Shown here piece after piece: positions 17,978-37,499 of a DNA stretch of 37,499 nt. Numbering within the stretch: the stretch's first letter is position 1; every line of letters starts with the position of its first letter. The DNA lies in NCBI GenBank assembly GCA_035510175.1, contig DATKHQ010000061.1, positions 1 to 37,499 of the forward strand. The letters run 5' to 3'. Origin of the DNA: Candidatus Sulfotelmatobacter sp. (GTDB taxonomy: Bacteria > Acidobacteriota > Polarisedimenticolia > Polarisedimenticolales > DASRJG01). The notes under the pieces are model-generated. The model was not told the origin of the DNA, ran no database searches, and saw only the letters and a program-made list of their open reading frames with translations. A program made the position numbers and the translations under genes.

Positions 17978-18163
17978 CGCGACCTCCGCGGCCCGAAAGA
18001 GGGCATCTGGCTGGATAGGACCGATCTATAGCCGGTTGGTTCCCTGTGGGACCGCGGCCTGCGTTCGAAGCGGCGGCGCCCCCGCGCTGGGGGGGATCGC
18101 ACACGTCTTGGGTGAATTCCCGCACCTCCAAAGGCCTCGACCCCATCTCCGTCGCCGGATCGA

Positions 18164-18179
18164 TGGCACACTGATTGCG
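18164..18179 (+). promoter_or_regulatory. Candidate sigma-54 (-24/-12) promoter element TGGCAC-N5-TTGC
   Basis: TGGCACactgaTTGCg matches the RpoN consensus core with correct spacing, in the 202-nt divergent intergenic region ahead of the cytochrome cluster. Caveat: it abuts the first candidate start codon of the NHL gene. Confidence 0.3.
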
Positions 18180-19136
18180 GTGAGTCCGAGAGTGCGCCTT
18201 CTCGCGAACGTCGCCGTCGGCGTAGCGCTTTGCGCGCTCGCCCAGCCGGCAGGGGCGGTGGAGGTCAAATACCTCTACCGGCTGTCGAATTTTTCCGGGG
18301 TCATCCCTTACTCCGATGTGGAGATGTGCGCGGACCCCGCCCATGACGAGATCTATGTCGGCGAAGGCGACCTGATCCGCGTGTTCAACGCCTCCGGGAT
18401 GGAGATCTACGACTTCAGCCACGACGCGATGAGCTACGGCGCGATCCTGGACATCGGCGTCATGCCGAGTGGCGACATCCTGGTCCTTTCCTACAGGCAA
18501 CCGACGGAGGCCAGGGCAGGGGGCTCGCAGGTCACGCGCTACAACTATCGGGGCGAGCCCCTGGGATCATTCGAGGTCCATGGGCTCCCGAGCGAGCTTG
18601 CCGGATTCACACCGAACCGCCTCGCGATCCGCCAGGATTCGCTCGTGTTCGCGAGCACCGCGTCCCTGCTCGTCGTGACAACCGATTTCGAGGGGACGTA
18701 CCGGCGTCACGTCGACCTTCTGGCGACGCTTCCCAAGAACGACAAGGCGAGAGAAGGCGCCGAGCTGGGCGGTTTCTACGTCGATGATCAAGGCGCCATT
18801 CTCTATACGATTCCAACGGCTTTCCGGGCTTTCCGGCTCAAGCCGGACGGCACCGCGGATTCGTGGGGGAAGCCGGGATCGGGCCCCGGAAGCTTCAGCG
18901 TCGTCGGCGCGATCCTGGCCGCGCCCAATGGATACACCTTGGTCGCCGATCGCGCGCGCGGTGCGGTCCTCGTGTTCGACCCGAGCCTGCGTTTCGTCCG
19001 CGAGTTCGGGAATCGGGGGCCAATCGTCGAGCAGCTCAACCGGCCGGGACTGATGGTCTTCGGCCGGGACGGGAAGCTGTATGTGAGTCAGCTCGGCTAC
19101 CACGGCCTCTCGGTCTTCGCGCTCACCACCCCCTGA
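18180..19136 (+). CDS. Exported NHL-repeat beta-propeller protein
   Basis: Signal-like VRLLANVAVGVALCALAQPAGA. Repeated propeller-blade motifs (GDILVLS, FYVDDQGAILY, GYTLVADRARGAVLVFD, GRDGKLYVSQLGYHGLSVF). Start is GTG 18180 or GTG 18192. Confidence 0.7.
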   Translation: MSPRVRLLANVAVGVALCALAQPAGAVEVKYLYRLSNFSGVIPYSDVEMCADPAHDEIYVGEGDLIRVFNASGMEIYDFSHDAMSYGAILDIGVMPSGDILVLSYRQPTEARAGGSQVTRYNYRGEPLGSFEVHGLPSELAGFTPNRLAIRQDSLVFASTASLLVVTTDFEGTYRRHVDLLATLPKNDKAREGAELGGFYVDDQGAILYTIPTAFRAFRLKPDGTADSWGKPGSGPGSFSVVGAILAAPNGYTLVADRARGAVLVFDPSLRFVREFGNRGPIVEQLNRPGLMVFGRDGKLYVSQLGYHGLSVFALTTP

Positions 19137-19165
19137 CGCCGCCAGTCCCGGTCGGGTCGCTCGAT

Positions 19166-19187
19166 TCCGGAGAAAAACACTCCGGAG
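19166..19187. promoter_or_regulatory. Direct repeat TCCGGAG-N8-TCCGGAG (also foldable as CCGGAG/CTCCGG hairpin) upstream of the omcS-like gene
   Basis: Read directly: tccggag at 19166-19172 and 19181-19187. Each copy contains the palindrome TCCGGA. Located 30 nt after the NHL stop and about 60 nt before ATG 19249. Confidence 0.25.
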
Positions 19188-19248
19188 TGAGTGGGCCGCG
19201 GGCATGCGTTGTGCGATAACTCACGCCCACGTCTTTCAAGGAGGACTC

Positions 19249-20559
19249 ATGAAAGCGATCCGGATTCTTCTCATGGCGGGCGTCGCCGGCCTGGCGGTGA
19301 TCGGCCTCTCGCCGGTGTACGCGTTCCACTCCGGTGGCGTCGCCGAATGCGGCGGCTGCCACAGCATGCACGACGCGGCCTCGAACCCGCTCCTCCAGAA
19401 GGGCGATCCGAGCTCGACGTGCCTCAACTGCCACGAGCATGCGGGCGACACCGGCCCGAGCTCGTACCACATCTCGAGCGCCGTCGTCGACATGCCCGAC
19501 GGCGTGCCGCCGAAACAGCGCGGCCCGGCCGGCGACTTCGGCTGGCTGAAGAAGAACTACACCTACACGCTGCGCGGCACCCCGACGACCGACTTCGGGT
19601 ACACCCACGGCCACAACATCGTCGCGACGGATTTCGGGTACGTCGCCGATCCCGTCAACACCACGGCCCCCGGAGGGACGATGCCGTCCAACCAGCTCAG
19701 CTGCGTGAGTTGCCACGACCCGCACGACCGGACGCGTCGCCTCAACGACGGGACCCTCGTTTCGCCGAACCGGAACCAGGGGCAGACCTACGCACCGATC
19801 ATGGGCTCGGGCTCCTACGGTCTCGTTCCGCCGGCCGGTCTCGCGGCGGGCGTCTACCGGATCCTCGGCGACGTGAACTACGTTGCCTTCGACAACACGA
19901 CGTTCCCGGGCGTTCCCTCCGCGGTGACGCCGTCGACGTACAACCGGACGGAATTGGCGACGCAGACCCGCACCGCCTACGGCCACGCGACGACGGGCGG
20001 GTACGCGAGCTGGGGTCAGTGGTGCGCCACGTGCCACCCGAACATGCACAGCAACAACAACGCGCTGGCCCACCCGGTCGACCAGGCGCTCGGCACGACG
20101 ATCTCCAACAACTACAACGCCTACCTCAAGACGGGCGATCTGACCGGAACGCCGACCACGTCGTTCAACTCGTTGGTGCCCTTCACCGAATCGACGTCGG
20201 ACGTCGCCACGCTGGCCGCCCACGCCAAGACCGACGACTCGTACCTGAACGGGCCGGCCTCGAGCGATCGCGTGAACTGCCTCAGCTGCCACCGCGCTCA
20301 CGCGACGGCGTGGACCTACAGCCTCCGGTGGAACGGCGAGAACGAGTTCGTCACGATGGCCGACAGCACCGGCACGGCCGTGTACCCCGGCAAGGACGCC
20401 GTGGGCAACACGCCGGACGGCAAGGCGCTCAACCAGCAGACCCAGATCTTCAAGGGGTACACGGTGGCCGAGATGCAGGCCGGGTACTACGACCGGCCGG
20501 CGATCAAGTTCGCCGCCTATCAGCGCCAGCTCTGCAACAAGTGTCACATCCAGGATTGA
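19249..20559 (+). CDS. omcS: OmcS-family hexaheme c-type cytochrome (nanowire-forming cytochrome homologue)
   Basis: AAGGAGGA lies 5 nt before the ATG. Signal peptide ends VYA|FHSGGVAECGGCHSMH. Six CXXCH motifs (CGGCH, CLNCH, CVSCH, CATCH, CLSCH, CNKCH). Long runs match my recollection of G. sulfurreducens OmcS: CLNCH.HAGDTGPSSYHIS, GDFGW.KK, GHNIVA, TTAPGGT.P.NQL.C.SCHDPH, YRILG, PSTYNRTE..TQTR.AYG, VNCLSCHRAHA, KFA.YQR.LCNKCH..D. Confidence 0.9.
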   Translation: MKAIRILLMAGVAGLAVIGLSPVYAFHSGGVAECGGCHSMHDAASNPLLQKGDPSSTCLNCHEHAGDTGPSSYHISSAVVDMPDGVPPKQRGPAGDFGWLKKNYTYTLRGTPTTDFGYTHGHNIVATDFGYVADPVNTTAPGGTMPSNQLSCVSCHDPHDRTRRLNDGTLVSPNRNQGQTYAPIMGSGSYGLVPPAGLAAGVYRILGDVNYVAFDNTTFPGVPSAVTPSTYNRTELATQTRTAYGHATTGGYASWGQWCATCHPNMHSNNNALAHPVDQALGTTISNNYNAYLKTGDLTGTPTTSFNSLVPFTESTSDVATLAAHAKTDDSYLNGPASSDRVNCLSCHRAHATAWTYSLRWNGENEFVTMADSTGTAVYPGKDAVGNTPDGKALNQQTQIFKGYTVAEMQAGYYDRPAIKFAAYQRQLCNKCHIQD

Positions 20560-20598
20560 TCGTTCCTGTCTGTCGCGGATCCTCCCTGAAGGGCGGAA

Positions 20599-20628
20599 GG
20601 GGGCCGGTCGAACCGGCCCCCTTTTTTT
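20599..20628 (+). terminator. Rho-independent terminator after the omcS-like gene
   Basis: GGGGGCCGG (20599-20607), loop tcgaa, CCGGCCCCC (20613-20621), followed by TTTTTTT (20622-20628). It starts 40 nt after the stop codon. Confidence 0.85.
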
Positions 20629-20672
20629 GATTGCGTGCTCGGACTAGCCTTAGCGTTCCATCCGGGGGCGTC

Positions 20673-22079
20673 ATGTTGAGGGCCTGCATCGCGATCGGGA
20701 TAATCGGGCTCCTCGCCGTCCCTGGAGACCGCGCCGCGCGTCCCGCGGTTGGGGTACCGAGGGAAGGCGGCTACGTCGCCGTTTACGCCAAGCCGCTTTC
20801 ACCCGCGGCCGCCGGACTCACGCTCACGCTGGGCGGAGTCTCCGCCGTCCGGGAGGACGGCACCGCAGCGCCGCTGACGCTGACGATGCCGAGCTATCCC
20901 GATCCGGGCCCTCCCCGGCAACGGCTGCTGGCCTGGGGCTTCGTGCCTGCCGGAGCGTACGCGGGGCTCGCGATCAAGGTGCGCTCGGCCCGCGCGAGGA
21001 CCGACGGCGAGGGGCACGATCTTGCGGTCGGGACGGATGCTCCCGCAGCCAAGCTCCCGTTCCTCGCAGGGCCGCGCAGCGCCCTCGTCGCCACCGTCGA
21101 GCTCGACGTCGGAGCCTCGCGAAAGTCGGCCGACGAGCTCGCACCCGTGTTCGTGGCGACGATCCCGCCGACGCTCGCCTCGGGCCTGACGGGAGCGGTG
21201 ACGAGCCGCGGAACCGGCGTCGTCTCCTTGTTCGACAAGGTTTCGGGTCAGGTCGCCTCCGCGATCGCCGTCGGGCGGGCCCCGTCCGCGATGGCGATCG
21301 ACGACCTGAGAAACCGCCTTTATGTGGCCATCGGCGGGGACGACGCCGTCGCGACCCTCGACTTGCTCTCCCGTTCCGTGCTCGGCGTGGTACGGCTGCG
21401 CGGGGGCGACGAGCCGGTCTCGCTCGGGTTGACTCCGGACCGGCGCACCTTGCTGGTCGCCAACGCGGGCTCCTCGAGCGTCACGGTGTTCGACGCGTCG
21501 GGCCCGACGCTCGTCGAGCGGACGCGCGTCGAGGTCGGGAGCGGCCCGCGCTATCTCCTGGTCGACCGTGCCGGAACGCGGGCGTGGGTGTTCTGCGCCG
21601 ACGAGGACCGGGTGGTCGCACTCACCCTTCCGACGGGCGCTCTCGCCGGATCGGTGTCCTCCCCCGGCGGCCCCATCCGCGGGGATTTCAGCAAGGACGG
21701 GACCCGCCTGTACGTCCTTCACGCGTACTCGGCCTACCTGGACGTCGTGGACGCGTCGACGCTCGCGGTCACGCAGCGCGTGTTCGTCGGGCCGAAGTCG
21801 GTATCCATCAAGGTGGATTCCCAGACGGACAGGATCTACCTCGGGTTCAAGGGCTCGAAATCGATCTCCGTCTACGATCCGGCCGGACTGCTTCCCATCG
21901 ACGAAATCCGGACAGAAGGAGGCGCCGACTTCCTCACGATCGACGGCCAAGGGAACAATCTTTGCGTCATCGATTCCCTCAGGGGCGAGATTCGCCTCGT
22001 CCGGCTCGTCGGGAAGACGGTCGCGGCGCAGGTCGACCTCCCCGAGCCAAGTGAGGTCGCGCTCCTGGGCGAAAGGTGA
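20673..22079 (+). CDS. Exported protein: Ig-like N-terminal domain (DUF4382-like) plus YVTN/YncE-type beta-propeller
   Basis: Signal MLRACIAIGIIGLLAVPG. Repeated roughly 40-residue blades (GRAPSAMAIDDLRNRLYVA, PVSLGLTPDRRTLLVANAGSSSVTVFD, GPRYLLVDRAGTRAWV, FSKDGTRLYVLHAYSAYLDVVD, DSQTDRIYLGF). Confidence 0.8.
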   Translation: MLRACIAIGIIGLLAVPGDRAARPAVGVPREGGYVAVYAKPLSPAAAGLTLTLGGVSAVREDGTAAPLTLTMPSYPDPGPPRQRLLAWGFVPAGAYAGLAIKVRSARARTDGEGHDLAVGTDAPAAKLPFLAGPRSALVATVELDVGASRKSADELAPVFVATIPPTLASGLTGAVTSRGTGVVSLFDKVSGQVASAIAVGRAPSAMAIDDLRNRLYVAIGGDDAVATLDLLSRSVLGVVRLRGGDEPVSLGLTPDRRTLLVANAGSSSVTVFDASGPTLVERTRVEVGSGPRYLLVDRAGTRAWVFCADEDRVVALTLPTGALAGSVSSPGGPIRGDFSKDGTRLYVLHAYSAYLDVVDASTLAVTQRVFVGPKSVSIKVDSQTDRIYLGFKGSKSISVYDPAGLLPIDEIRTEGGADFLTIDGQGNNLCVIDSLRGEIRLVRLVGKTVAAQVDLPEPSEVALLGER

Positions 22080-24286
22080 CGGATTGCGTGGGGAGATCCG
22101 AGCAGAGGCGATTGCGGGGACGGCGGGGCCTTCCGCTCCTCCTCGTGGCGCTCGCGGCGGCGCTCGGCCCGGCCCGACCCGCGGCTGCGGACGACGAGCT
22201 CAACGGGTACCTCGAGCTGACCGGCGCCGCGTCGCGGCTGAACACCGAGGATGCGACCGGGGCGAGCACCGACGAGACCGCGCGATCGTTCCTGCAGCGC
22301 TACAGCCTCAACTTCGCGCACCGCTTCTTTCCGAACCTCGAGTTCCGCGTCGGTGGCCTTTACGAGCACGAGCGTCTGTCGACCGACCTCTCCGGCATCG
22401 AGAGCGTGGGCAACCGCCAGCGCGTCCTTCCGTACGCCCTGTTCACGCTCCGGACGCAGATCGTCCTCGCCGAGATCGGGTACGACCGGCGAACGGAGCG
22501 GTTCGACAACGATCTGTCCGTCTCGAAGCTTACGCAGGAGAACTGGCGGGCGAATTTCGGCTGGAACCCGCTCGATCTCCCGCGACTGCGCCTCGAGCTG
22601 TCCCGGAGGAACACGTTCGACCTGGGGCGAGAGGGGCTGGACACGACGGAGGATCGCGCGCAGCTGGGCATGCGCTACAGCGCGGAGACCTACGAGGTGA
22701 ACTACCGCGGATCGCTGGAGCGCGATACGGACCACATCCACGGCGGGGCCGTGGAGACGAACTTCCAGAGCGCCCACGCGGCCTGGGGGGACGCGTGGCT
22801 CGACCGGCGCCTCACGTTGAGCACGGACTACACGGTGAGCTACCGCGAGACGACGGCGACCGGCTCGAGCGCGGGGGAGATCATCCAGTCCGTGAACGCC
22901 GTCGCCGGCCTCTCGTCGATCGACGACACGCCGGATCACGATCCCCTCAACCCGAATGCCGCGCTGATCGACGGCAACCTGACCGTCGGCGCCGGGGTGG
23001 ACCTGGGCCTCCCCCCGCCGGGAGGGGACATCCGGCCCCGCAACATCGGTCTCGATCTCGGTTTCGCCAATCAGCTCAACACGATCCTGGTGTGGGTCGA
23101 CCAGACGCTCCCGCCGTCGATCGCGGGTTCGTTCTCCTGGAAGATCTACTCGAGCGACGACAACTTGAACTGGACGCTCACCCAGACCCTGGTCACGGCT
23201 CCGTTCGGGCCGTTCGACAACCGGTTCGAGATCCGCTTCCCCGCGCTGGTCACGCGATACGTCAAGCTCGTGGTCTCGCCGCTGTCGCCGATCGTTCCGG
23301 ATGCGACGAGCTGGCCCCAGATCCTCGTGACCGAGCTCGAGCCGCAGCTGCGCACGGCGGCGTCGGGCGTCGAGAACCACACCTCGGAGGTGTCGCAGCT
23401 GTTCAACGGCAACTTCAGGGCACGGCTGCTGAACGTGCCGGCGTTCTACTACGAGCTCGGCTACTTCCTCTCGAATCCCGGCACGGGGCCCACGCAGTGG
23501 ACGCTCTCGAACGGACTGTCCGTGATCCAGGCGCTCAGCCCGATCCTGACCGGACAGGCCCGTCTCTCGCGGGAGGACCGGCAGGAGCGCATCGGCAGGC
23601 AGACCGCATACCTGTTCAGCGGGGCGCTCACCGCGACCCCGATTTCGACCGTCCAGGAAAGCCTGGTGGTCTCGGCGGTGAACGAGCAGGGGGACTTCGG
23701 GCGGGATACCGCATCGGCCCTCTTCTCGAGCGCGGCGGAGCTCTATCGGGGGATCGGCGCCAATCTGGTGGTGGGCCGCTCGGTCATCCGGCCCCACGAG
23801 GGCGGGCAGTCGATTTCCGACACGGGCGAGATCGGCGTCACCCTGAACCCGAACTCGCAGCTGACGGTCAATCTCCTGCTCCAGGATCGGGTGACGGATA
23901 CGACGTTCCCGACGCCGGCTCAGCCCGAGCAGCGCGACGACACGCGCGCGGCGGAGATCGGCGCCGCCTACCGCCCGCTGCGCTCCCTCTACCTTTTCGC
24001 CTCGACACGCGCGGAGCGGAGCAATCAAACCGGGTCCCGGACGCTACGCAACTACGCGCTGAGCTGGGCTCCCTTCCCGGACGGGACGCTTCACTTCAGC
24101 GTGTTCTACGATTCGACCTACCACACGGAGCTGGCCGAGACGGAGCAGACGCTCGTTCCGTCCGTGCGGTGGGACGTCACGTCGCGGATCTACCTCCAGA
24201 CGTCGTATCAGGATCTTCGAACGGATTCGGTCCTCGGGTCGACGCGGACCAAGGTCTGGACGGCGACGGTTCACGCGGCGTTCTAA
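22076..24286 (+). CDS. Predicted outer-membrane beta-barrel protein carrying an internal discoidin (F5/8 type C)-like domain
   Basis: Arg-rich signal peptide; alternating-hydrophobicity strands (FLQRYSLNFAHRFF, LEFRVGGLYEHE, YALFTLRTQIVLAEIGY); C-terminal TKVWTATVHAAF ending in Phe (OMP beta-signal). Start is GTG 22076 (GTGA overlap) or GTG 22088, which has AAGGTGA 8 nt upstream. Confidence 0.7.
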   Translation: MTDCVGRSEQRRLRGRRGLPLLLVALAAALGPARPAAADDELNGYLELTGAASRLNTEDATGASTDETARSFLQRYSLNFAHRFFPNLEFRVGGLYEHERLSTDLSGIESVGNRQRVLPYALFTLRTQIVLAEIGYDRRTERFDNDLSVSKLTQENWRANFGWNPLDLPRLRLELSRRNTFDLGREGLDTTEDRAQLGMRYSAETYEVNYRGSLERDTDHIHGGAVETNFQSAHAAWGDAWLDRRLTLSTDYTVSYRETTATGSSAGEIIQSVNAVAGLSSIDDTPDHDPLNPNAALIDGNLTVGAGVDLGLPPPGGDIRPRNIGLDLGFANQLNTILVWVDQTLPPSIAGSFSWKIYSSDDNLNWTLTQTLVTAPFGPFDNRFEIRFPALVTRYVKLVVSPLSPIVPDATSWPQILVTELEPQLRTAASGVENHTSEVSQLFNGNFRARLLNVPAFYYELGYFLSNPGTGPTQWTLSNGLSVIQALSPILTGQARLSREDRQERIGRQTAYLFSGALTATPISTVQESLVVSAVNEQGDFGRDTASALFSSAAELYRGIGANLVVGRSVIRPHEGGQSISDTGEIGVTLNPNSQLTVNLLLQDRVTDTTFPTPAQPEQRDDTRAAEIGAAYRPLRSLYLFASTRAERSNQTGSRTLRNYALSWAPFPDGTLHFSVFYDSTYHTELAETEQTLVPSVRWDVTSRIYLQTSYQDLRTDSVLGSTRTKVWTATVHAAF
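22934..23346 (+). other. Discoidin/F5-8-type-C-like domain inserted within the barrel ORF
   Basis: AALIDGNLTV..NIGLDLGFANQLNTILVWVDQ..FSWKIYSSDDNLNWTL..RFEIRFPALVTRYVKLVV..ILVTELEP follows the DG-x-T / VDLG / W-Y-S-DG-W / ARYVRL / E-E pattern of discoidin domains. Confidence 0.5.
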
Positions 24287-24299
24287 AAGGACGGTCGGC

Positions 24300-24893
24300 A
24301 TGCGCACGATGAGATCGGTCTCCTACATGGCACTCGCGGTCTCGCTCCTCCCCGCTTCCGGGTGTGCGGGCCGGCACGCCGCCACGAACACCTTTCACGA
24401 GCCCACGATGGACTTCAGCCTCGTGCACACGGTGGCGGTCCTGCCGTTCTCCAACCTCACGCCGACCCAAACGGCGGCCGACCGGGTCCGGGGCGTGTTC
24501 GTCACGATGCTCCAAGCCCAGGGAGGGGAGATGTACGTGCTGCCCCTCGGCGAGGTCCAAAAGGGACTTTCCCGGACGGAGATCCAGCGCGCGGACCAAC
24601 CCTCCGCCGAAGACGTCGTCGTCCTGGGGAAAGCGCTCAGTGCCGACGCGGTGATCACCGGGAGCGTGATGGAGTACGGAGAAGCGCGCTCCGGCTCCGC
24701 TTCGGCGAACTACGTCTCGGTCTCGGCGCAGATGCTGGAGACCAAGACCGGCCGCCTCGTCTGGAGCGCGCAGTCGACGAAGGGGGGAGTGACCGCCGCG
24801 GACCGGATGTTCGGAGGAGGCGGCCAGCCCATGAACGTGATCACCGCCGATGCCGTGAACGAGCTGCTCGACAAGCTCTTCAAGGCGAAGTGA
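24300..24893 (+). CDS. Lipoprotein with a CsgG/LpoB/DUF799-like fold
   Basis: Lipobox LLPASG|C; VAVLPFSNLT....ADAVITGSVMEY pattern typical of the CsgG/LpoB/TolB-N-like family. AAGGA upstream of the ATG. Confidence 0.75.
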   Translation: MRTMRSVSYMALAVSLLPASGCAGRHAATNTFHEPTMDFSLVHTVAVLPFSNLTPTQTAADRVRGVFVTMLQAQGGEMYVLPLGEVQKGLSRTEIQRADQPSAEDVVVLGKALSADAVITGSVMEYGEARSGSASANYVSVSAQMLETKTGRLVWSAQSTKGGVTAADRMFGGGGQPMNVITADAVNELLDKLFKAK

Positions 24894-25960
24894 GCGCCGT
24901 GCTCCCGCTAGGAGCGCCTCTTCTGGCTCTGGCCGCCCTGGCCGGCCCCCTTCGCGTGGCGGTCCTCCCCGTGGAGAACCTCACCGGCCGCGTGCTCGAC
25001 GGTGCTCCGATCGAGCGGGCCTGGCGGGGGGCGCTCGCCGCGAGCGGCATGGAGGTACTGGACGATCCGACGCGTGGGGCCTTGATGGACCGTCATCGGG
25101 TGCGGTACGTGGGCGGCGTCTCGCCGGACCTCGCCACCGCCTTCCGCGAGGAGGCGCAGGTCCAGGCGGTGATGATCACCTCCGTGGAGCGCTGGATCGA
25201 GCACGCGCCTCCGGTCCTCTCGCTGCATGCCCGCCTCGTCTCGACCGAGGCCGAGCCCTCGATCCTCTGGGTCGGCGGCCTCGGAGCGACGGGCGAGGAC
25301 CACCCCGGGTTCCTCGGGCTCGGAGTCGTGGACGACCCGAAGGTGCTTCTCGCGCGGGTGGTCGCGGATCTCGCGGCGTCGGTCAAGGGGGCTGTCTCGG
25401 GCGGGGCCTCCCGCACGCCGTCCGGCGAGCGCCGGTTCCGGCCCAAGCTTGCGTTCGCCAGCGTGGTCGCCGGCGAAGAAGGAGGGTCGCTTCGGGTCGC
25501 CGTGCTTCCCTTCACGAACCGCACGGACCGCCGGCGCGGCGGGGATCTCGTCGCGGCGCACTTCGTCGCGGCGCTCGCCGGGCGCCCCGGTATCCGAGTC
25601 GTGGAGCCCGGCATCGTCCGCGAGGTACTTCTCAAGCTCCGGGTGATCCCCGAAGGAGGGATCCCCTACGCACAGGCCGAGCTGCTCCGCGAGACGCTCG
25701 GGGCCGATCTCGTGCTGATGGGGGAGGTCCTGGATTACAGCGATGCGGACGTCGACGGTCCCCCTCCCATCGTCGATTTCACCGTGCAAGCGCTCGACGC
25801 CGCCCATCGCCGCGTGGCGTGGTCCGCGTTCAGCCACTCCACCGGTACGGACGGCGTCTGGTTCTTCGAGCGGGGCCGGCTCCGGACCGCCCACGCGCTC
25901 GCTGCGGCGATGGCGCGCTCCGCGGTCGAGGCGCTGCTCACCGCGAAAGGAAAGCCGTGA
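24890..25960 (+). CDS. Exported protein with two tandem CsgG/LpoB-like domains
   Basis: Two copies of the motif (RVAVLPVENLTG ... and RVAVLPFTNRTD ... GADLVLMGEVLDY). The GTG start overlaps the upstream stop (GTGA at 24890-24893). Confidence 0.7.
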   Translation: MSAVLPLGAPLLALAALAGPLRVAVLPVENLTGRVLDGAPIERAWRGALAASGMEVLDDPTRGALMDRHRVRYVGGVSPDLATAFREEAQVQAVMITSVERWIEHAPPVLSLHARLVSTEAEPSILWVGGLGATGEDHPGFLGLGVVDDPKVLLARVVADLAASVKGAVSGGASRTPSGERRFRPKLAFASVVAGEEGGSLRVAVLPFTNRTDRRRGGDLVAAHFVAALAGRPGIRVVEPGIVREVLLKLRVIPEGGIPYAQAELLRETLGADLVLMGEVLDYSDADVDGPPPIVDFTVQALDAAHRRVAWSAFSHSTGTDGVWFFERGRLRTAHALAAAMARSAVEALLTAKGKP

Positions 25961-27660
25961 GAGTACGAATCCCCATCCTCGCCGCAGCACTCTCCGCCGG
26001 GCTCGCATCCTGGGCCCTCGCGGCACCGCCGGCGGCATCCTCGTCGCCTCCCGAGCTCCCACTGATCCAGGGGCGGCGGGCGATCGCCACGGTCAACGGC
26101 CAGCCCGTCACATGGGGCGCCTTCCGGGAGGCGCTTGCGTCCGTTCACGAGAACGCGCCGGAGGCCACCAAGCGCGCGAAGCAGGACCCGCAGGCGCTGC
26201 TCGATCGGCTGATCACGGGAAAGCTGATCGTCCAGGAGGCGCGCAACATCGGTCTCGACCATGAGCCGGCGTACACCGCGGCGCTCGAATCGTTTCGGCT
26301 CGACACGCTCCAGAAGATGGTGCTCGACCGTCCGGCCTCCGAGGTCAAGAAGCCGTCCGATGCGGACGTCCGCTCCCTGTACGTCACGCGGGTCGGGGTC
26401 GCGCGGATCGACTCGGTGCTCTTCAAGACCAAGGCCGAGGCGGACGCGTTCTCCGCCGCCGTCAAGGGAGGGCGCGCGTTCGCCGATGCGGCGCGCGCGG
26501 CGCAGGGCTCCGGCGCGACCTGGCAGCCGAACGAGACGATCAAGCTGGCCGAGGCGCAGACCGAGGTCGCGGGTGCGATCGCGGTCCTCCATCCAGGCGA
26601 GACAAGCAAAGCCCTCCAGGTACAGGACGGATGGACGGTGGTCACCCCGCACGAGGTGACGGTCCCCGACGATCCCGTCGCGCGGAAGGAATCCGAGGAT
26701 CAGGCCCTCGACTACGCGCGACTGCAAGCGGTGGGCGCCTACACGCGCGACCTCCGGAAGCGCTACGCGAAGGTGGACGAGGCGCTCCTGGCGAGCCTCG
26801 ACTTCGAGGCGAAGGAGCCCGGCTTCGCGCGGCTCAAGACGGACGAGCGCGTGGTCGCTAGGGTCACCGGCCAGCCGCCGATCACGGTCGCCGAGATCGC
26901 CAAGGCCGTGGAGGCGAATTTCTTCCACGGGCTCGAAGGCGCAATCGCGAAACACCAGGTCAACCCGCGCAAGCCCGTCGCCTTCGACGAGATCCTGGTC
27001 CGGCGTCTGACCGTCGCGGAGGCGACGCGTCTCGGCATCGAGTCCTCGGCCGACTACCGGGAGCGAAAGGAGCAGTTCGAGGATGGGGCGCTGTTCGACG
27101 CGTTCGTGAAGCGCGTCATCGTTCCCGACGTCCGGGTCGCCCCCGCCGAGGCGCGCGCGTACTACGACGCCCACGCGGACAGCTACGCGACCCCCGCGAT
27201 GCTCCGCCTCGATTCCATCGCGTTCGGGAAGCGATCCGACGCGGAGGTCGCCCTCAAGAAGGTCCGCGACGGCGCCGATTTCGGCTGGCTCAAGCAGAAT
27301 GCGGCTGGCCGGACCGACGCGAGCGACGTCATGAATCTTAACGGCGGAGTCTACTCGGTCAACGGCGTCGATCCCGGAATGAACAAGGCGCTCGCCAATC
27401 CCAAGGACGGGGATGCCCGTCTCTTCTCGGCGGACGACGGGACGAGCTACGTGATCCTGGTGCGGGAGGTGTTCCCGCCGAAGATCAAGCCTTTCGAGGA
27501 GGCGCAGGAGAACGCCACGCGTCAGGTCCTGAACGAGAAGCTCAAGAAGTCCCTGGACGACTGGACGAAGAAGCTGAGATCGGCGTACGAAGTGAAGACG
27601 TTCGTGACCCCCGCGCAGCTCGAAGCGCTCGTCAAAAGGGAATTCGGAGTCAAAGCCTGA
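25957..27660 (+). CDS. SurA/PrsA-like periplasmic chaperone with two parvulin (PpiC)-like domains
   Basis: Signal VRVRIPILAAALSAGLASWALA; SurA-type N-terminal helices (LLDRLITGKLIVQEARNIGL); two parvulin-like segments (ARIDSVLFKTKAEADAFSAAVKGGRAFADAA and LRLDSIAFGKRSDAEVALKKVRDGADFGWL). GTGA overlap with the upstream stop. Confidence 0.75.
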   Translation: MRVRIPILAAALSAGLASWALAAPPAASSSPPELPLIQGRRAIATVNGQPVTWGAFREALASVHENAPEATKRAKQDPQALLDRLITGKLIVQEARNIGLDHEPAYTAALESFRLDTLQKMVLDRPASEVKKPSDADVRSLYVTRVGVARIDSVLFKTKAEADAFSAAVKGGRAFADAARAAQGSGATWQPNETIKLAEAQTEVAGAIAVLHPGETSKALQVQDGWTVVTPHEVTVPDDPVARKESEDQALDYARLQAVGAYTRDLRKRYAKVDEALLASLDFEAKEPGFARLKTDERVVARVTGQPPITVAEIAKAVEANFFHGLEGAIAKHQVNPRKPVAFDEILVRRLTVAEATRLGIESSADYRERKEQFEDGALFDAFVKRVIVPDVRVAPAEARAYYDAHADSYATPAMLRLDSIAFGKRSDAEVALKKVRDGADFGWLKQNAAGRTDASDVMNLNGGVYSVNGVDPGMNKALANPKDGDARLFSADDGTSYVILVREVFPPKIKPFEEAQENATRQVLNEKLKKSLDDWTKKLRSAYEVKTFVTPAQLEALVKREFGVKA

Positions 27661-27678
27661 CATGATGCCGGTGCCGAA

Positions 27679-29643
27679 ATGAGCCTGCGTGGGTGGGGAT
27701 TCCGGTCTTGGGGGGCGAGCGCTGCTGCGGCGCTCGCGGTCGCCGTCCTGCAGGCCCCGATCCTCGGGGCGGAGACCCGGAAGTTCCAGTCCAAGTCGTG
27801 CATCGACTGCCACGGCGCTTTCGTCCAGAAGCTGGCTCCGCTCAAGGTCTTGCACCCCGGCGTGAAGGAGGGGAATTGCGAGAGCTGCCACCTCCGGCAC
27901 GGCATCGTGCCCAAGCTTCTCTTGAAACAGGAAGGCAACGCGCTCTGTCTGAGCTGCCACGCGAAAGAGACGATCGGGCTCGACAAGGCCAACGTGCACT
28001 CGGCGCTCAAGACGGGGAAGTGCGTCCAGTGTCACGACCCGCACGGCTCGAGCGCCCCCCACCTTCTCGCCGGTGAGGGGGCGGGCGCCTGCACGTCCTG
28101 CCACGACCGCAAAGCGTTCGAGCGGCCGGTCGTGCACGCCGTGCTCAAGACGGAGGGCTGCCGGGCTTGCCACCTCGCGCACAGCTCGTCGGAGGCGAAC
28201 CTGCTCGTCAAGGCGGAGGTCCCGCTCTGCCTGTCGTGCCACGATCCGGGCAAGCCGGCGTTCAAGACCGCGCACGGCGGGTACCCCGTCGAGAAAGCCT
28301 CGTGCGTGGGCTGCCACGATCCCCATTCCGCCGAGCAGCCCAAGCTGCTCAAGGCGAGCGCTCACGCCCCTACCGCGGGCGGGAGCTGCGACGCATGCCA
28401 CTCCGGGGCCACGTCGGCGAAGCCCTTCGGTCTCAAGGCCGAGGGCGCGGCGCTGTGCACCTCGTGCCACGACGCCGCGCAGCTCAAGGCGGGCGGGACC
28501 GTCGTCCACGCCCCGTTCGACTCCGGGGACTGCACGTCGTGCCACGATCCGCACGCCTCGGCCCAACCCAAGCTGCTCGCCCGGAAGGGCAATGAGCTCT
28601 GTACGAGCTGTCACACCGATCAGGGCGTCACGCCCGCGTTCCCGCATCCGGCGGTCGACAACGGCTGCGTGACCTGCCACGCGCCGCACGCGGCCAAGAA
28701 CGCGAAGCTCCTCGAGAAGCCGGGCTCGGAGCTGTGCGCCGACTGCCACGGTGAGATCGTCGCCGCCAAGCCGAAGGTCCCGCATGCCCCGTTCGACGCC
28801 GGCGAGTGCGTCGCCTGCCACGATCCCCATGGGTCCTCGACGAAGGGGATCCTCAAGAACCGCCAGGACCAGGTCTGCTTCACGTGCCATTCGGATCAGG
28901 AGCAGGAGTTCAAGCAGGCGACCGTCCACGCTCCGGTGCTGGCGGGAAGCTGCTCCGGCTGCCACCAGCCTCACGGCGGCACGGAGCCGAAGCTGCTCAA
29001 GGCCTCTGGGGCGGCGCTGTGCGCGAGCTGCCACGAAGACCTGATCAAGGAGGAACCCGGCGGGTCGAACCATCCGCCCTTCGCGTCCGGCGACTGCCTC
29101 ACGTGTCACGTTCCGCATGCGTCGTCCGCGCCGCGCCTGATCGGCCAACGGACCGCGGACCTCTGCTACACCTGCCACTCGGACGTGCAGGACGCGTTGA
29201 AGGCGGGGAAGGTCCGGCATGCCTCGGTCGAGGCGGGCGAGTGCACGAAGTGTCACAGCCCGCACAAGTCGAAGCTTCCGAAGTTGCTGCTGGCTCCGGC
29301 ACCCGATCTGTGCGTCACCTGCCACGCCGCGATCAAGACGAAGCTCGCCTCGGAACAGGTGCACCCTCCGGCTGCCCGCGACTGCCTCCGGTGTCACGCT
29401 CCCCATCAGTCCGCGGAGCCCTCGCTGCTCGTCTCGTCTCAGGGATCGCTGTGCGCCGGGTGTCACGACGTCCGGTCCGAGCCGTTTTCGAAGGCGCACC
29501 TCGGCATTGACCCATCCGTGATGAACTGCGTCAGCTGCCACGAGCCTCACGCGTCGAAGGACCCGAAGCTCTTCAAGCCCCAGGTGCACGCGCCGTTCGA
29601 GTCCGGCGCCTGCGAGGAGTGTCATGTCGTTCCGTCGAAGTGA
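27679..29643 (+). CDS. Multiheme c-type cytochrome, 26 CXXCH motifs (13 paired-CXXCH modules)
   Basis: I counted 26 CXXCH in 654 aa. Signal peptide present. Module of about 50 aa: C-x2-CH-DPH-x5-7-KLL-x5-7-LC-x2-CH-x10-13-VH-x-P-x4-6. Confidence 0.9.
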   Translation: MSLRGWGFRSWGASAAAALAVAVLQAPILGAETRKFQSKSCIDCHGAFVQKLAPLKVLHPGVKEGNCESCHLRHGIVPKLLLKQEGNALCLSCHAKETIGLDKANVHSALKTGKCVQCHDPHGSSAPHLLAGEGAGACTSCHDRKAFERPVVHAVLKTEGCRACHLAHSSSEANLLVKAEVPLCLSCHDPGKPAFKTAHGGYPVEKASCVGCHDPHSAEQPKLLKASAHAPTAGGSCDACHSGATSAKPFGLKAEGAALCTSCHDAAQLKAGGTVVHAPFDSGDCTSCHDPHASAQPKLLARKGNELCTSCHTDQGVTPAFPHPAVDNGCVTCHAPHAAKNAKLLEKPGSELCADCHGEIVAAKPKVPHAPFDAGECVACHDPHGSSTKGILKNRQDQVCFTCHSDQEQEFKQATVHAPVLAGSCSGCHQPHGGTEPKLLKASGAALCASCHEDLIKEEPGGSNHPPFASGDCLTCHVPHASSAPRLIGQRTADLCYTCHSDVQDALKAGKVRHASVEAGECTKCHSPHKSKLPKLLLAPAPDLCVTCHAAIKTKLASEQVHPPAARDCLRCHAPHQSAEPSLLVSSQGSLCAGCHDVRSEPFSKAHLGIDPSVMNCVSCHEPHASKDPKLFKPQVHAPFESGACEECHVVPSK

Positions 29644-30943
29644 CGGCCTCCTCGCCCGGCTCGCGGGAAGCGCCATGGCCTCGGTTTTGCTCGCGGGGCC
29701 GGTCGGTGCCGCGCCTCCGTCCGCGCGCCCGGCCGCCGAGGCGGACGACGCGAAGTTCAAGCTCAAGCCCGGAGCCCACGGCAAGGTCTGTCTCGGCTGC
29801 CATTCCGATTTCGAGGACAAGCTGAAGCTGCCCGCGATCCACACGCCCGTCAAGGCGGGCGCGTGCGTGGATTGCCACAGCCCGCACGCCTCCGACCACG
29901 GGAAGATGCTCGCGAAGCCCCCCGAGGCGATCTGCGTGTCGTGCCACGCCACGATCGTCCCGGCCGAGGCGAAGAGTGTGCACGCGGCGCTGCGGAAGGG
30001 GGGATGCGTCGCTTGCCACGACCCGCACGCCTCGCCGAACAAGAACCAGCTCCTCAAGCCGGTCGGCGAGCTGTGCGTCGGTTGCCATCAGGACATCGGG
30101 GCTCAGATCGCGAAGGTCAAGTTCCACCACCCGCCGGTGAGCACCGGCTGCGTCACCTGCCACGACCCGCATGCGTCGGCGAAGTCGGAGACGCTTCTGG
30201 TGCGCGACCAGGGGTCGCTCTGCGCGTCCTGTCACAAGCCGGACCAGCCGGCGATGACCAAGGCCCACATGGGCTATCCCGTGTCGAAGGGGCGGTGCAC
30301 GTCGTGCCACGACCCCCACGGCTCCGACGCTCAGGCGATGCTCTGGCCGAGCGTGCACAAGCCGGTCGCGACCCGCTCGTGCGGCCAGTGCCACAACGAC
30401 CCGGGGTCCGCGAACGCCCTGAAGACCAAGCGCCAGGGGATCGACGTCTGCCGCGGCTGCCATGGCGAGGTCGTGGGCGACGCGATGAACGCAAAGCGCC
30501 TCCACTGGCCGGTGGCGGACAAGATCGCGTGCCTGAACTGCCACGGTCCGCACGCGACCAAGGCGCCGAAGCTCGTGCGCGGGCCGCTGACATCCGTGTG
30601 CGGAAACTGCCACGCCGACACGATCCGGCGTCAGGAGCGCTCGGAAACCAAGCACCCGCCGGTCGAGTCGGGAGACTGCACGAGCTGTCACGCGCCCCAC
30701 GGATCGGACAACCCGTTCCTGCTCGCCGCCCCCGACGAGCTTCAGCTGTGCGGGACCTGTCACGACTGGCAGAACCACACCGGGCACCCGATCGGTCCGA
30801 AGGCGGTGGACCCCCGCAACAAGAACCTCACCGTGAGCTGCGAGAGCTGCCATCGCGCCCACGGCACGGAGTTCAAGCACTTCGCGCATCTGGACACGAA
30901 GGGGGACCTCTGTGTCCAGTGCCACGAAAGGTTCCGGAGGTAA
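29624..30943 (+). CDS. Multiheme c-type cytochrome, 16 CXXCH motifs
   Basis: I counted 16 CXXCH in 439 aa with the same paired module. ATG 29624 is preceded by GAGGAG (29614-19) and overlaps the upstream gene by 20 nt. Alternative ATG at 29675. Confidence 0.85.
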   Translation: MSFRRSDGLLARLAGSAMASVLLAGPVGAAPPSARPAAEADDAKFKLKPGAHGKVCLGCHSDFEDKLKLPAIHTPVKAGACVDCHSPHASDHGKMLAKPPEAICVSCHATIVPAEAKSVHAALRKGGCVACHDPHASPNKNQLLKPVGELCVGCHQDIGAQIAKVKFHHPPVSTGCVTCHDPHASAKSETLLVRDQGSLCASCHKPDQPAMTKAHMGYPVSKGRCTSCHDPHGSDAQAMLWPSVHKPVATRSCGQCHNDPGSANALKTKRQGIDVCRGCHGEVVGDAMNAKRLHWPVADKIACLNCHGPHATKAPKLVRGPLTSVCGNCHADTIRRQERSETKHPPVESGDCTSCHAPHGSDNPFLLAAPDELQLCGTCHDWQNHTGHPIGPKAVDPRNKNLTVSCESCHRAHGTEFKHFAHLDTKGDLCVQCHERFRR

Positions 30944-30946
30944 CCC

Positions 30947-31840
30947 ATGGCCCGAACCGCCGGAGCCGGACTGACGATGCTCGCCGTGCTGCTCGGCGCG
31001 CCCGCCGCGAGCGCGGAGGGAGTCAAGCTGCGGCCGGGACCGGGAATCTACGCCGACGCGAAGAACGCCCCCCTCAGCCTGCCGGAGGGCGTCGCGTGCG
31101 CCGCGACGTCGCTCGTCGTCGCCGACACCGGACACGGCCGCTTCGTCATATACGAGCTGGCCGATCGCCTCGCCACGCCGAAGACCGACTTTCAGGTGCC
31201 CGAGGTTCCCTACCCGATCCGCGTCCGCCTCGACGCGCACGGCGAGATCCTCGCCCTGGATGGAAAATCGCGGCGCATCGCAAGGCTCACCGCCGCCGGC
31301 GCGTTCCAGGGATTCGTCGGCGTGGCCGACGCGCCCGAACCCGTGATCCGGAGCTTCGCCGTCGGCGCCGACGGCCGCCTCTACGTCCTCGACATCGCCG
31401 GGGAGCGGGTGCTCGTGACGGACCCGGCCGGGAAGGTCGAGCGCCGGGTCGCCCTTCCCGCGGACTGCCGGTTCCCCTCGGACGTGACGGTCGATGCCCA
31501 GGGGCGCCTCTACGTGCTCGACAGCGTCGGTGCGCGGATCTTCGCCGCGGCCGCCGGCAAGGCGGAATTCGTCGCGATCGGAGCGAGCCTGAAGGATGAT
31601 CTCGCGTTCGCGACAAGCCTCGGCCTCGACTCCGCGGGGCACCTCGTCGTGATCGACCAGACGGGCGGCGGGATCGTGTTCCTGTCGACGGACGGCTCCT
31701 TCCGCGGGCGGCAGTCGGGGATGGGCTGGACCGACGGGCTGTTGCGCTGGCCGTCCTCGGTGTGCAGCGACGGCCGTGGCGGGCTGTACGTCGCGGATCG
31801 CGAGAACGACCGCATCGCGGTTTTCACCGAGGTGCCCTGA
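30947..31840 (+). CDS. Exported NHL-repeat beta-propeller protein
   Basis: GGAGG lies 8 nt upstream. Signal MARTAGAGLTMLAVLLGAPAASA. Blades include LVVADTGHGRFVIY, DGRLYVLDIAGERVLVTD, QGRLYVLDSVGARIF, GHLVVIDQTGGGIVF, GGLYVADRENDRIAVF. Confidence 0.8.
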   Translation: MARTAGAGLTMLAVLLGAPAASAEGVKLRPGPGIYADAKNAPLSLPEGVACAATSLVVADTGHGRFVIYELADRLATPKTDFQVPEVPYPIRVRLDAHGEILALDGKSRRIARLTAAGAFQGFVGVADAPEPVIRSFAVGADGRLYVLDIAGERVLVTDPAGKVERRVALPADCRFPSDVTVDAQGRLYVLDSVGARIFAAAAGKAEFVAIGASLKDDLAFATSLGLDSAGHLVVIDQTGGGIVFLSTDGSFRGRQSGMGWTDGLLRWPSSVCSDGRGGLYVADRENDRIAVFTEVP

Positions 31841-33658: not shown

Positions 33659-33759
33659 CCGAGCGAGGTCCGAGCGCCGGTGCGCGGGCCGCGATGATAT
33701 CGCAGCGCTCCCTCCGCAGCTTCGTCGAAACCGGTTGACGCCCCCGGAAAGAGACGGTA

Positions 33760-36700: not shown

Positions 36701-37499
36701 CATCGACCTGGACCACGGCCAACCCGGGGTCGCGCACGTTCACGGCGCCGCTCGTCAACCCGGTGGCGATCGTCGACAGCGACTTCGCAGGCGCCGGAGC
36801 CACGCAGGACGAGCAGCTGATCACCCCGGCAACCGACCTCTCCTCGGCGACGGGTGTGACGCTCGACTTCGACCAGTACTTCCGCTGGTACAGCGGCGGC
36901 GGGAACGAGATCGGCGACGTCGACGTCCGCTCGACGCTCACGGGGAACGCCTGGGTGAACGTCTTCCGCAACCAGGGCGCCTCGAGCAACAACCCCGACC
37001 ACCGGACGCTCACGATCACCCCGCAGGCCGCCGGGGCCGCGAACGTCCAGATCCGTTTCCACTACTACCAGGGGAGCGACGACTGGTACTGGCAAGTCGA
37101 CAACGTCAAGCTCACCGACACGGCTCCGACCGGATGTTCGATGAACGTCTGCGCGGGGCCGCCGGCGCCGCCTCCGGTCCCCGACGGCAGCTTCGGGCAG
37201 CCCGCAAGGGCCTCGCGCGCCGCGTCCGACGGGTCGTCGATCAACCTCACGTGGGACACCACGACCTGCGTCGCCGGCGATTATCACGTGCTCTACGGAC
37301 CGCTCTCGGGACTTCCGACCACGACGGTCTCCGGGAGCGTGTGCGACCTCGGAACCTCCGGCGCCTACAGCTGGACTCACGTTCCGGCCGGCAACCTCTG
37401 GTTCGTCATCGTCTCCGACGACAACGTGTCGATCGAGGGGAGCTGGGGAACCGCGACCTCCGGGCCGATGGGGGGGACGACGGTCTCCGGGATGTGCGG
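33760..37499 (+). CDS. 3'-truncated secreted multidomain serine protease: S1 lysyl-endopeptidase-like domain, FN3-like domain, proprotein-convertase P-domain, further jelly-roll domains
   Basis: Not in the supplied ORF track because no stop occurs before the window end. I translated frame 1 (positions with pos mod 3 = 1) from ATG 33760, just after in-frame TGA 33736-38, to 37499 and saw no stop. S1 triad context: SCNIDINC, LTSWHC (His codon 34588-90), SDFTLLEM, GSSGGP (Ser codon 34951-53). FN3-like ITWTTNEAADSRVRYG. P-domain VNVTVNITHPYDADLEISLIAPNGTSVPL...QGNWQLKVADREAEDIGTLDGWTLSL. Later WYWQVDNVKL. Confidence 0.8.
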   Translation, partial: MSPRIASRHVCSRCFLRPVARLAMILTFGMGSAVLAGSLAPQPVSFSGAAGVPQGEVRSWDSAPVDVPRLLAEDAANAKIPGIPLRIGFPMAVDLEPANSGTWETLPGGDRLWRLRVVSRGARWIELGFDAFRLRAGAAMWVYDAGHRTVVGPYTSADVRDHGELWPPPIEGSETVVELLWPRTLAGQTPRLHIGTVSHGYKAFGSIGRDLLPGAGDLSANASGSCNIDINCPLGANWQDQKRGVVILMSGGSSFCSGSMINDTANDCKAYVLTSWHCGAGASTQFGFNYERSACGSGDPPGPTTYMVSGATVRGSYSTSDFTLLEMSALPPDSYNFYLSGWSHDPNPATMTWVIHHPSGDFKKISHDNDPPVDGINWGPSHWRINQYEQGTTEPGSSGGPLFDQNHRIVGQLHSGTASCTSLTWDEYGKVAVSWSGGGTAASRLSDWLDPGNTGATVWDGLDGSVCYFQPAGTITLNRSTYSCSDSMTIHLRDDNLRGNPTQTVNAKSTSEPAGETVTLSAVAPGSGDFQGNFPTTGGAAVTGDSQLSVANGDTITVTYIDADDGAGGTNVPRTATATADCLAPIISGVGSTDVTGSSARITWTTNEAADSRVRYGTAPPPGSSTYAAPLVTAHSVTLTGLAECTHHIYSVESADAATNLATDNAGGAYYGFDTLRNTNPAFAGPGGLAIPDNNANGVTSTISVSDTQTVVDVNVTVNITHPYDADLEISLIAPNGTSVPLATRRGSSGQNFVGTTFDDSAATAISAGSAPFTGSFRPESPLAAATGISAQGNWQLKVADREAEDIGTLDGWTLSLLYPGEPCGPHAKYETHTLVQDACATGGPGNGDTYWDPGETAQFSVTLENDGTVALTGVSATLVPTTPGVTMITATATYPSIATGATAVSNAPHFKASLPTSLACGSSIGFNVVVSSDQGSWTTPMTQTIGHVLPGGGTPINEAFTSGIPGTWSVIDGGSGGGPASTWTTANPGSRTFTAPLVNPVAIVDSDFAGAGATQDEQLITPATDLSSATGVTLDFDQYFRWYSGGGNEIGDVDVRSTLTGNAWVNVFRNQGASSNNPDHRTLTITPQAAGAANVQIRFHYYQGSDDWYWQVDNVKLTDTAPTGCSMNVCAGPPAPPPVPDGSFGQPARASRAASDGSSINLTWDTTTCVAGDYHVLYGPLSGLPTTTVSGSVCDLGTSGAYSWTHVPAGNLWFVIVSDDNVSIEGSWGTATSGPMGGTTVSGMC

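Follow-up and report, generated by a model that had tools for sequence, protein, structure and literature searches.

The window analyzed here, a 37.5-kb stretch of contig DATKHQ010000061.1 with a G+C content of approximately 69%, contains a block of ten consecutive genes that corresponds gene for gene to the omcS-osc cluster of Geobacter and that, with an estimated probability of approximately 0.72, is its orthologue and encodes filament machinery as in Geobacter. Its host is a soil-derived, uncultured, high-GC lineage of Acidobacteriota, and the copy it carries is a minimal form of the cluster, with one hexahaem paralogue and without OscB, the haem motif of OscD, or a riboswitch. The ten open reading frames (ORFs), numbered G1 to G10 in order, all lie on the + strand between 18180/18192 and 31840 and have a high third-position GC content (GC3), the bias seen in real genes, and the same ten genes were obtained from independent calls on metagenome contigs encoding the identical protein. 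A preliminary description of this DNA had likewise counted ten same-strand genes, from a start at 18164 that is slightly off; the likely start is GTG 18180 or GTG 18192. Its tally of 48 CXXCH sites was recovered in the translations, with 6 in G2, 26 in G8, and 16 in G9, and its list of domains was reproduced by Pfam and NCBIfam profile searches, with G1 scoring only weakly as NHL. Export signals were judged by eye from N-terminal hydrophobic segments. G5 and G6 overlap by 4 nt, G6 and G7 by 4 nt, and G8 and G9 by 20 nt, while 3 nt separate G9 from G10, and because of this spacing G5 through G10 are considered to be linked in an operon-like manner.

The published cluster of G. sulfurreducens, GSU2505-GSU2493, was compared through locus L088 (GCA_014883105.1) of a close relative, whose OmcS is 94% identical to the protein of PDB 6EF8. 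This locus encodes, in order, a 315-amino-acid (aa) protein, OmcS, OmcT, a 1017-aa spermine-synthase-like membrane protein (OscB), and OscC, the third hexahaem protein, followed by eight proteins of 482, 725, 199, 392, 571, 660, 426, and 301 aa. The osc names were assigned to these genes because three lines agree: the literature gives GSU2501 as oscC, GSU2495 as oscI, and GSU2494 as oscJ; GSU2500-GSU2493 has been described as a block of eight genes with a part in the maturation and secretion of nanowires; and exactly eight genes follow OscC in L088. GSU2495 has also been described as a 26-haem protein of ~70 kDa. In blastp searches, all ten window proteins have full-length counterparts in L088 in the same order, at 33-51% identity with E-values of 4e-56 to 0, and the reciprocal search of L088 against the window returns the same pairs (Table 1). 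The two loci have ten families, their order, and their strand in common, with the OscD-OscK block complete and in order directly downstream of G2, and they also share haem counts of 6, 26, and 16 and a strong terminator between the subunit gene(s) and the machinery. The resemblance to the osc cluster that had been suggested earlier is borne out by these ten collinear counterparts. The accompanying remark that the barrel and the 26- and 16-haem pair are without an assigned mechanism, as though they stood alone, needs amending: they correspond to OscE, OscI, and OscJ, and since the haem counts are the same in Geobacter, the barrel with its discoidin insert and the pair of long cytochromes are ordinary members of the cluster.

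G2 is the presumed filament subunit. Among all PDB sequences searched with phmmer, OmcS (6EF8/6NEF) is its sole significant match (E 1.1e-106), with query residues 26-436 aligned on chain residues 1-407, as expected of the OmcS homologue that the gene had first been taken to encode. The protein is identical to NCBI HUC42859.1, from a MAG labelled Candidatus Sulfotelmatobacter sp. Alignment across the haem motifs was checked, and each of the six falls in register with its counterpart in OmcS, OmcT, and OscC. Among 93 homologues that include these three Geobacter proteins, conservation is 99-100% at the twelve cysteines and six proximal histidines of the motifs. The mature protein is predicted to begin with FHSGGVAEC, cleavage falling between A and F, and the N-terminal pattern A-FHSGGVAEC-x-GCH-x-MH is invariant in an alignment of 14 diverse homologues. 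H41 and H348 of G2 align with His16 and His332 of mature OmcS, and both columns are 100% conserved (93/93 homologues). In the OmcS filament, His16 of one subunit is the distal ligand of haem 5, of which His332 is the proximal ligand, in the next subunit; the two residue numbers are said to be those given by Wang and co-workers in 2019. Coordination of haem by histidine between subunits has been described for OmcS filaments (PMC12307469). By position, G2 resembles OmcS/OmcT in lying after a GSU2505-like gene and before a terminator, and it resembles OscC in being adjacent to OscD. From its homology to the Geobacter proteins, we infer that G2 would form filaments.

The co-occurrence of these families with OmcS homologues in other genomes was also checked. 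One genome per species was scanned, which gave 250 relatives of G2, and the best 80 of the 250 were examined as loci (numbered with the prefix L) with at most 10 kb of flank on each side; proteins related to that of the window are over-represented in this sample, and G. sulfurreducens OmcS was missed by the alignment-derived patterns. Synteny was determined by tblastn with the ten window proteins, and the counts are limited to loci with enough flanking DNA. Directly downstream of the OmcS homologue and on the same strand, an OscD-like gene is present in 56/63 loci, an OscE-like gene in 51/58, an OscF-like gene in 49/56, an OscG-like gene in 48/55, and an OscH-like gene in 44/54, so the companion block OscD-H trails 81-89% of the homologues, and a G1-like gene lies directly upstream in 54/69. 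Neither this check, within the bias of the sample, nor the one on the haem motifs refuted the first interpretation. The same gene order is found within Acidobacteriota, in Vicinamibacteria, Thermoanaerobaculia, and Polarisedimenticolia (L017), as well as in Rokubacteria/Methylomirabilota, Nitrospirota, Thermodesulfobacteriota/Desulfobulbaceae, Anaeromyxobacteraceae, and others. Five long-flank loci are without an OscE-like gene; the three that were checked (L046, L057, and L076) are second hexahaem copies in metagenome-assembled genomes (MAGs) that have the full cluster elsewhere. As judged from the compared loci, the core of the system consists of the gene for the hexahaem protein, the terminator after it, and OscD-H, joined by the 26-haem OscI and by OscJ in loci with a long enough flank, and the GSU2505-like gene belongs to it more loosely; OscB, extra paralogues, the OscD haem site, and the riboswitch are lineage-specific.

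The condition of the genes bears on whether the cluster could be an inactive relic in the host genome. None of the ten ORFs is broken, their GC3 is high, and each aligns over its full length. A protein identical to G2 turns up in 211 blocks of the public assembly collection, soil metagenomes among them, on contigs of up to 430 kb. At the species level, the closest genomes are MAGs of Acidobacteriota, with 73-76% identity, and relatives at 55-76% identity retain the whole block. Nothing was found in favor of decay, a reading considered because the copy is without OscB, extra paralogues, and a riboswitch, and because its genes are intact and the identical protein is widespread, a relic is very unlikely indeed.

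The window and the Geobacter locus differ in several respects. Geobacter has three hexahaem genes (OmcS, OmcT, and OscC), whereas the window has one; Geobacter also has OscB, a polytopic, spermine-synthase-like membrane protein of ~1000 aa, a CXXCH in OscD, a lipobox cysteine in OscG, and a GEMM-I riboswitch before the subunit gene, none of which the window has. The hosts differ as well, a soil Acidobacteriota MAG of 69% GC being compared with Geobacter across 33-51% protein identity. Neither an OscB homologue nor a second hexahaem gene is present in the 37.5-kb window. The membership of OmcT, OscB, and OscC has been reported to vary among Geobacter genomes, and an OscB homologue occurs, at varying positions, in only 20/80 related loci; for these reasons, the three are treated as non-defining. 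In Vicinamibacteria, OscB lies between OscF and OscG, and elsewhere it is convergent after OscH or upstream; the loci that bear it include L023 (15511-18486), L012, L016, L021, L033, L036, and L043.

The strong terminator that had been noticed after the hexahaem gene is indeed found directly behind it, with a 14-bp stem and a run of seven T (Table 1). A comparable hairpin with a T-run follows the OmcS homologue in 45/60 related loci, and in the Geobacter locus L088 the terminator lies at 4037-4069, just after omcT. Its conserved position suggests that transcription of the subunit may be uncoupled from that of the machinery, and a terminator of this strength would probably allow the subunit to be produced in large excess over the machinery, as is the case for major subunits of other surface fibres. 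The stem sequence is often similar across phyla, reading GGGGCCGG...CCGGCCCC and then the T-run.

The first gene of the assembly block, G3, encodes a YncE/YVTN beta-propeller, with Pfam YNCE at E 6e-13 and a match to TIGR02276. CXXCH is absent from G3 and from the OscD homologues of 63/63 related loci, while Geobacter OscD has one, CSGCH, which overlaps its lipobox; the haem motif in OscD thus appears, in the homologues compared, to be specific to Geobacter. G5 matches the Pfam families GNA1162-like (E 2.8e-8, 34 bits) and LpoB (E 7e-5, 23 bits) above their cut-offs and has a lipobox-like ASGC, as seen by eye. The CsgG family scores 16 bits (E 7e-3), below its cut-off of 20.8; G5 has the fold superfamily in common with CsgG and is at most a candidate member of the CsgG family itself. 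G6 has zero matches in a Pfam search. Its halves are nevertheless recognizable by profile-profile comparison with hhalign, in which G5 aligns with the N-half of G6 at a probability of 94.7% (E 6e-8) and with the C-half at 99.4% (E 3e-21), and the two halves align with each other at 98.6% (E 6e-16), in agreement with the double-domain protein proposed earlier. G7 matches Rotamase_2 (E 5e-19) as well as SurA_N_2 and SurA_N_3 (E 1e-4) in Pfam.

The OscE-like protein G4 has an uncertain start codon (22076, 22112, or 22145). An AlphaFold2 model built from an alignment of 31 OscE homologues has a mean predicted local distance difference test (pLDDT) score of 89.7, is all beta, and has ~28 barrel strands by manual count of the DSSP string, 11 before and 17 after an inserted domain. 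A profile search of G4 gave a weak F5/8-type-C signal. The insert (~22859-23371), modeled alone, is a beta-sandwich (pLDDT 94.8) that matches CBM32 / F5/8-type-C domains (4zxe_A, E 1e-6, TM-score 0.53/0.66; among the matches, TM-scores reach 0.69 on the target). Going by strand parity, its place should be in a loop outside the cell. The two models confirm the discoidin-bearing barrel that had been read from the sequence. Foldseek searches of the PDB returned generic large barrels alone (TonB-dependent receptors, MtrB, and the FimD usher) at TM-scores of 0.2-0.36, and no close solved relative of the G4 barrel was found there. G4 was also considered as an MtrB or usher homologue and rejected, such scores being generic across large barrels.

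G1, which in the preliminary description was an NHL propeller, is homologous to the 315-aa protein encoded upstream of Geobacter omcS, and from the position of the locus tag we infer that its counterpart is GSU2505; the NHL label stands less well, since Pfam and NCBIfam give only weak NHL/ScyF-like matches. G10 closes the block in the position of OscK as an NHL-repeat protein. Between G7 and G10 lie the two long cytochromes, G8 and G9, and the profile Paired_CXXCH_1 matches G8 thirteen times (E 1e-149). All complete OscI homologues (25/25), at 47-68% identity, have exactly 26 CXXCH, a constant count which hints at a possible constraint on the length of the wire. In the Acidobacteriota loci L032, L062, L071, L055, L054, and L046, the three genes OscI, OscJ, and NHL precede the G1-like and OmcS genes and are not at the block end; therefore, the cytochrome module can move as a unit.

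A number of points weigh against a close equivalence with Geobacter. Strict orthology to OmcS cannot be claimed for G2 on its sequence, because it groups within an Acidobacteriota clade of the neighbour-joining tree, roughly equidistant from OmcS/OmcT and OscC, and its identities to the three (46/46/44%) are nearly equal. Only the OmcS of G. sulfurreducens is known to form a wire, and the block may at first have served a GSU2501-type hexahaem protein (PMC12977616); the literature search found no experiment for the host organism or for any non-Geobacter member. As G3 is without CXXCH, any haem-dependent step described for Geobacter OscD cannot apply to it. Similarly, the N-terminus of G6 (24890-24970) is hydrophobic and without a lipobox cysteine, which in Geobacter OscG is part of LAAGC, and in the host lineage G6 may stay soluble in the periplasm or be anchored in another way.

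The same paper allows that the block had another function before OmcS arose, and this speaks for the main alternative, a trans-outer-membrane porin-cytochrome conduit without any filament, in which OscI/OscJ would thread the OscE barrel like MtrA in MtrB and pass electrons to a monomeric or oligomeric hexahaem cytochrome at the surface, filaments being a later speciality of Geobacter OmcS. Periplasmic polyhaem cytochromes encoded with a large outer-membrane barrel and an exported cytochrome are the classical porin-cytochrome make-up, and it is in this that the window is like the MtrCAB and Pcc systems; G4 has its best TM-score, 0.34-0.36, with MtrB from the Mtr complex (6r2q_B), and the invariant 26 haems of OscI suggest a structural constraint on length. 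However, the MtrB likeness is generic, with a TM-score of <0.4 and with TonB-dependent receptors and the FimD usher scoring alike. In Pfam and NCBIfam, no window protein matches an MtrB/PioB or OmbB family barrel, and the window proteins are without family-level homology to MtrB, MtrA, or MtrC. The barrel itself has ~28 strands and a CBM32-like insert in the window, against 26 strands in MtrB, and beyond the make-up of MtrCAB and Pcc the cluster adds a prolyl isomerase, propellers, and CsgG/LpoB-fold proteins. Furthermore, the equivalents of His16 and His332, which make the inter-subunit bond of OmcS filaments, are invariant in the 93 homologues, the conserved strong terminator fits a subunit made in large excess, and OscE, OscF, and OscG are reported to be needed for OmcS secretion in Geobacter. 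A conduit that replaces the filament is accordingly judged unlikely, although conduit and filament models are not mutually exclusive.

For the filament machinery of Geobacter, Shen et al. 2025, as summarized in PMC13194489, assign folding to OscH, secretion to OscE, OscF, and OscG, and morphology to OscD; the sources consulted give functions for these five proteins only, and none for OscI, OscJ, OscK, or the GSU2505-like protein. By homology, the hexahaem pre-protein of the window would be exported and its signal peptide cut before FHSGG, after which the six haems would be loaded in the periplasm and folding would be aided by the OscH-like prolyl isomerase. The subunit would then cross the outer membrane through, or mounted on, the ~28-strand OscE-like barrel together with the OscF/OscG-like proteins of lipoprotein fold, and a porin-like mounting model for the filament has been published. 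Outside the cell, head-to-tail polymerization would yield an extracellular haem wire, in which haem 5 of each subunit, the one bound at the C-x-x-C-His332 equivalent, would gain its remaining ligand from the His16 equivalent of the neighbouring subunit, and the OscD-like propeller would modulate the morphology of the filament.

The role of OscI and OscJ is hypothesized to be the carriage of electrons across the periplasm to the base of the filament ("charging"). Solved multihaem proteins, such as MtrA and GSU1996, span ~1 nm per haem, and the predicted lengths are roughly ~20-25 nm for the 26-haem and ~13-16 nm for the 16-haem cytochrome. A more speculative and unlikely extension is that the single-paralogue, riboswitch-less form is near the ancestral design and that the companion block is a permanent electrical junction of the filament, beyond its part in secretion. 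The ~28-strand OscE barrel would then hold the filament base, with the OscI/OscJ wires plugged in from the periplasm; the 26 haems of OscI, a number that does not vary across several phyla, would make it a ruler spanning the periplasm, and the barrel's CBM32-like loop domain would have a cell-surface glycan or the filament itself as its ligand.

The direction of the current gives rise to another reading, in which the machine is as in Geobacter but would run the other way in the host lineage, with partner cells, reduced humics, or Fe(II) minerals supplying the electrons. In principle, a multihaem wire can conduct in either direction, and the cluster occurs in lineages for which metal reduction is not known (Methylomirabilota/Rokubacteria, Nitrospirota, and soil Acidobacteriota). 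The 37.5-kb window has neither a PpcA-like gene nor a gene for an inner-membrane quinol-oxidizing cytochrome or quinol dehydrogenase to indicate the direction. However, the window sequence gives no pointer to uptake, the sole characterized member is published as reducing extracellular acceptors and acting in interspecies electron transfer, and Acidobacteriota with similar cytochromes have been proposed as metal-oxide reducers (PMC8528874), and uptake is distinctly improbable.

In addition to the porin-cytochrome systems, the filament machinery proposed here can be compared with curli and chaperone-usher fibres. The likeness consists of a dedicated periplasmic chaperone, an outer-membrane channel, accessory proteins of the CsgG/LpoB/GNA1162 fold, and a major subunit gene that is transcriptionally set apart, and the FimD usher is among the fold matches of G4. 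In contrast to curli, the CsgG Pfam match of G5 is below the cut-off, and the channel of the window would, going by the model, be a monomeric giant barrel, not a lipoprotein oligomer. The system further differs from both in that its cargo is a folded haem protein and in having no usher-type plug or chaperone fold.

The window locus adds to the known osc system and is not a new kind of machine. Novelty outside Geobacter had been implied when the block was first described, and this was overstated, because Shen et al. 2025 (Cell Chem Biol 32:239) had already presented the osc cluster as "widespread and ancient" and OmcS-like clusters were noted in Acidobacteriota in 2021. In that year, OmcS-like hexahaem genes were reported among periplasmic cytochrome and beta-barrel genes in the MAG AM4 of Ca. 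Polarisedimenticola svalbardensis (Flieder et al. 2021, PMC8528874); that report predates the osc names and did not go into the individual companion genes, and the host of the window is a different, soil-derived lineage. The value of the window copy is modest: it bears on how far the system reaches ecologically and on which of its parts are core and which are variable. The cluster is minimal, well preserved, and from a soil lineage of Acidobacteriota, and it lends support to the idea that machinery for cytochrome filaments is widespread outside Geobacter and may matter for electron flow in soils; the division into core and lineage-specific parts obtained from the 80 loci helps in the design of minimal constructs for heterologous expression.

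The riboswitch stands before the subunit gene in some of the loci and is absent from others. In L088, a GEMM-I riboswitch precedes omcS at 1205-1285 (RF01051, 56.8 bits), and the GEMM-I riboswitch of the omcST operon responds to cyclic GMP-AMP (cGAMP) and cyclic di-GMP (c-di-GMP) (PMC6456294). The Rfam family c-di-GMP-I-GGC is found just upstream of the subunit gene in L022 (2354-2438), L049 (2188-2265), L019 (2445-2522), and L004 (1296-1377). A covariance model built from five examples gave 31 strong matches of 58-100 bits in the Geobacter locus and 27/80 loci, and one further riboswitch, cut by the contig end in L045, brings the total to 28/80, from many phyla. All of them are on the coding strand before the subunit gene, and three Nitrospirota loci also have a copy before the G1-like gene. 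No description of a spread of the omcS-type riboswitch beyond Geobacter to other phyla was found in the literature. Neither Rfam nor the covariance model detected a cyclic-dinucleotide riboswitch in the window at 17800-19400 or in its closest relatives, L001-L003. A c-di-GMP-I-GGC match at 19025-19105 was dismissed as chance, as its 21.3 bits fall short of the gathering score of 59 and it lies inside conserved G1 coding sequence; with the locus-derived covariance model the same match reaches 9.7 bits, the best score of the window. A degenerate riboswitch in the spacer between G1 and G2 was likewise rejected after the spacer was aligned with those of L001-L004, the leader being conserved in the clade and containing no aptamer.

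Table 1. Features of the window with their positions, and the Geobacter (L088) counterparts of the ten cluster proteins by blastp.
Feature	Position	Strand	Length, window/Geobacter (aa)	Identity to Geobacter counterpart	Basis or remark
VIT-VWA protein, divergent flank	15125-17977	-			unrelated to cluster
G1, exported beta-propeller-like protein, ~314-318 aa	18180..19136 (alternative GTG 18192)	+	318/315	315-aa protein upstream of omcS: 40%, residues 25-316, E 2e-70	blastp
G2, OmcS-family hexahaem c-type cytochrome, presumed filament subunit	19249..20559	+	436/434	OmcS: 46%, E 2e-130; OmcT: 46%; OscC: 44%	phmmer, blastp, six CXXCH
Intrinsic terminator between G2 and assembly genes	20595..20632	+			hairpin 20595-20625, 14-bp stem, 9 G-C pairs, 3-nt loop, T7
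G3, OscD-like YncE/YVTN beta-propeller	20673..22079	+	468/482	OscD: 37%, residues 33-468, E 8e-87	Pfam YNCE, TIGR02276, blastp OscD
G4, OscE-like large outer-membrane beta-barrel	22112..24286	+	724/725	OscE: 35%, full length, E 8e-121	blastp OscE, AlphaFold2
G5, OscF-like lipoprotein, GNA1162/LpoB/CsgG-like fold	24300..24893	+	197/199	OscF: 47%, E 4e-56	Pfam, blastp OscF
G6, OscG-like protein, tandem duplication of OscF-like domain	24890..25960	+	356/392	OscG: 39%, E 2e-72	blastp OscG, hhalign
G7, OscH-like periplasmic prolyl isomerase / SurA-like chaperone	25957..27660	+	567/571	OscH: 33%, E 6e-97	Pfam, blastp OscH
G8, OscI-like 26-haem periplasmic cytochrome, 13 paired-CXXCH units	27679..29643	+	654/660	OscI: 51%, residues 17-651, E 0	Pfam, blastp OscI
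G9, OscJ-like 16-haem cytochrome	29624..30943	+	439/426	OscJ: 50%, E 3e-157	Pfam Paired_CXXCH_1 x8, blastp OscJ
G10, OscK-position NHL-repeat beta-propeller	30947..31840	+	297/301	301-aa NHL protein: 39%, full length, E 2e-72	Pfam NHL E 9e-18
TPR protein, convergent after G10	31880-33706	-			unrelated to cluster
Secreted protein of >1246 aa, runs off window end	33760-37499	+			trypsin-like and proprotein-convertase P domains; unrelated to cluster

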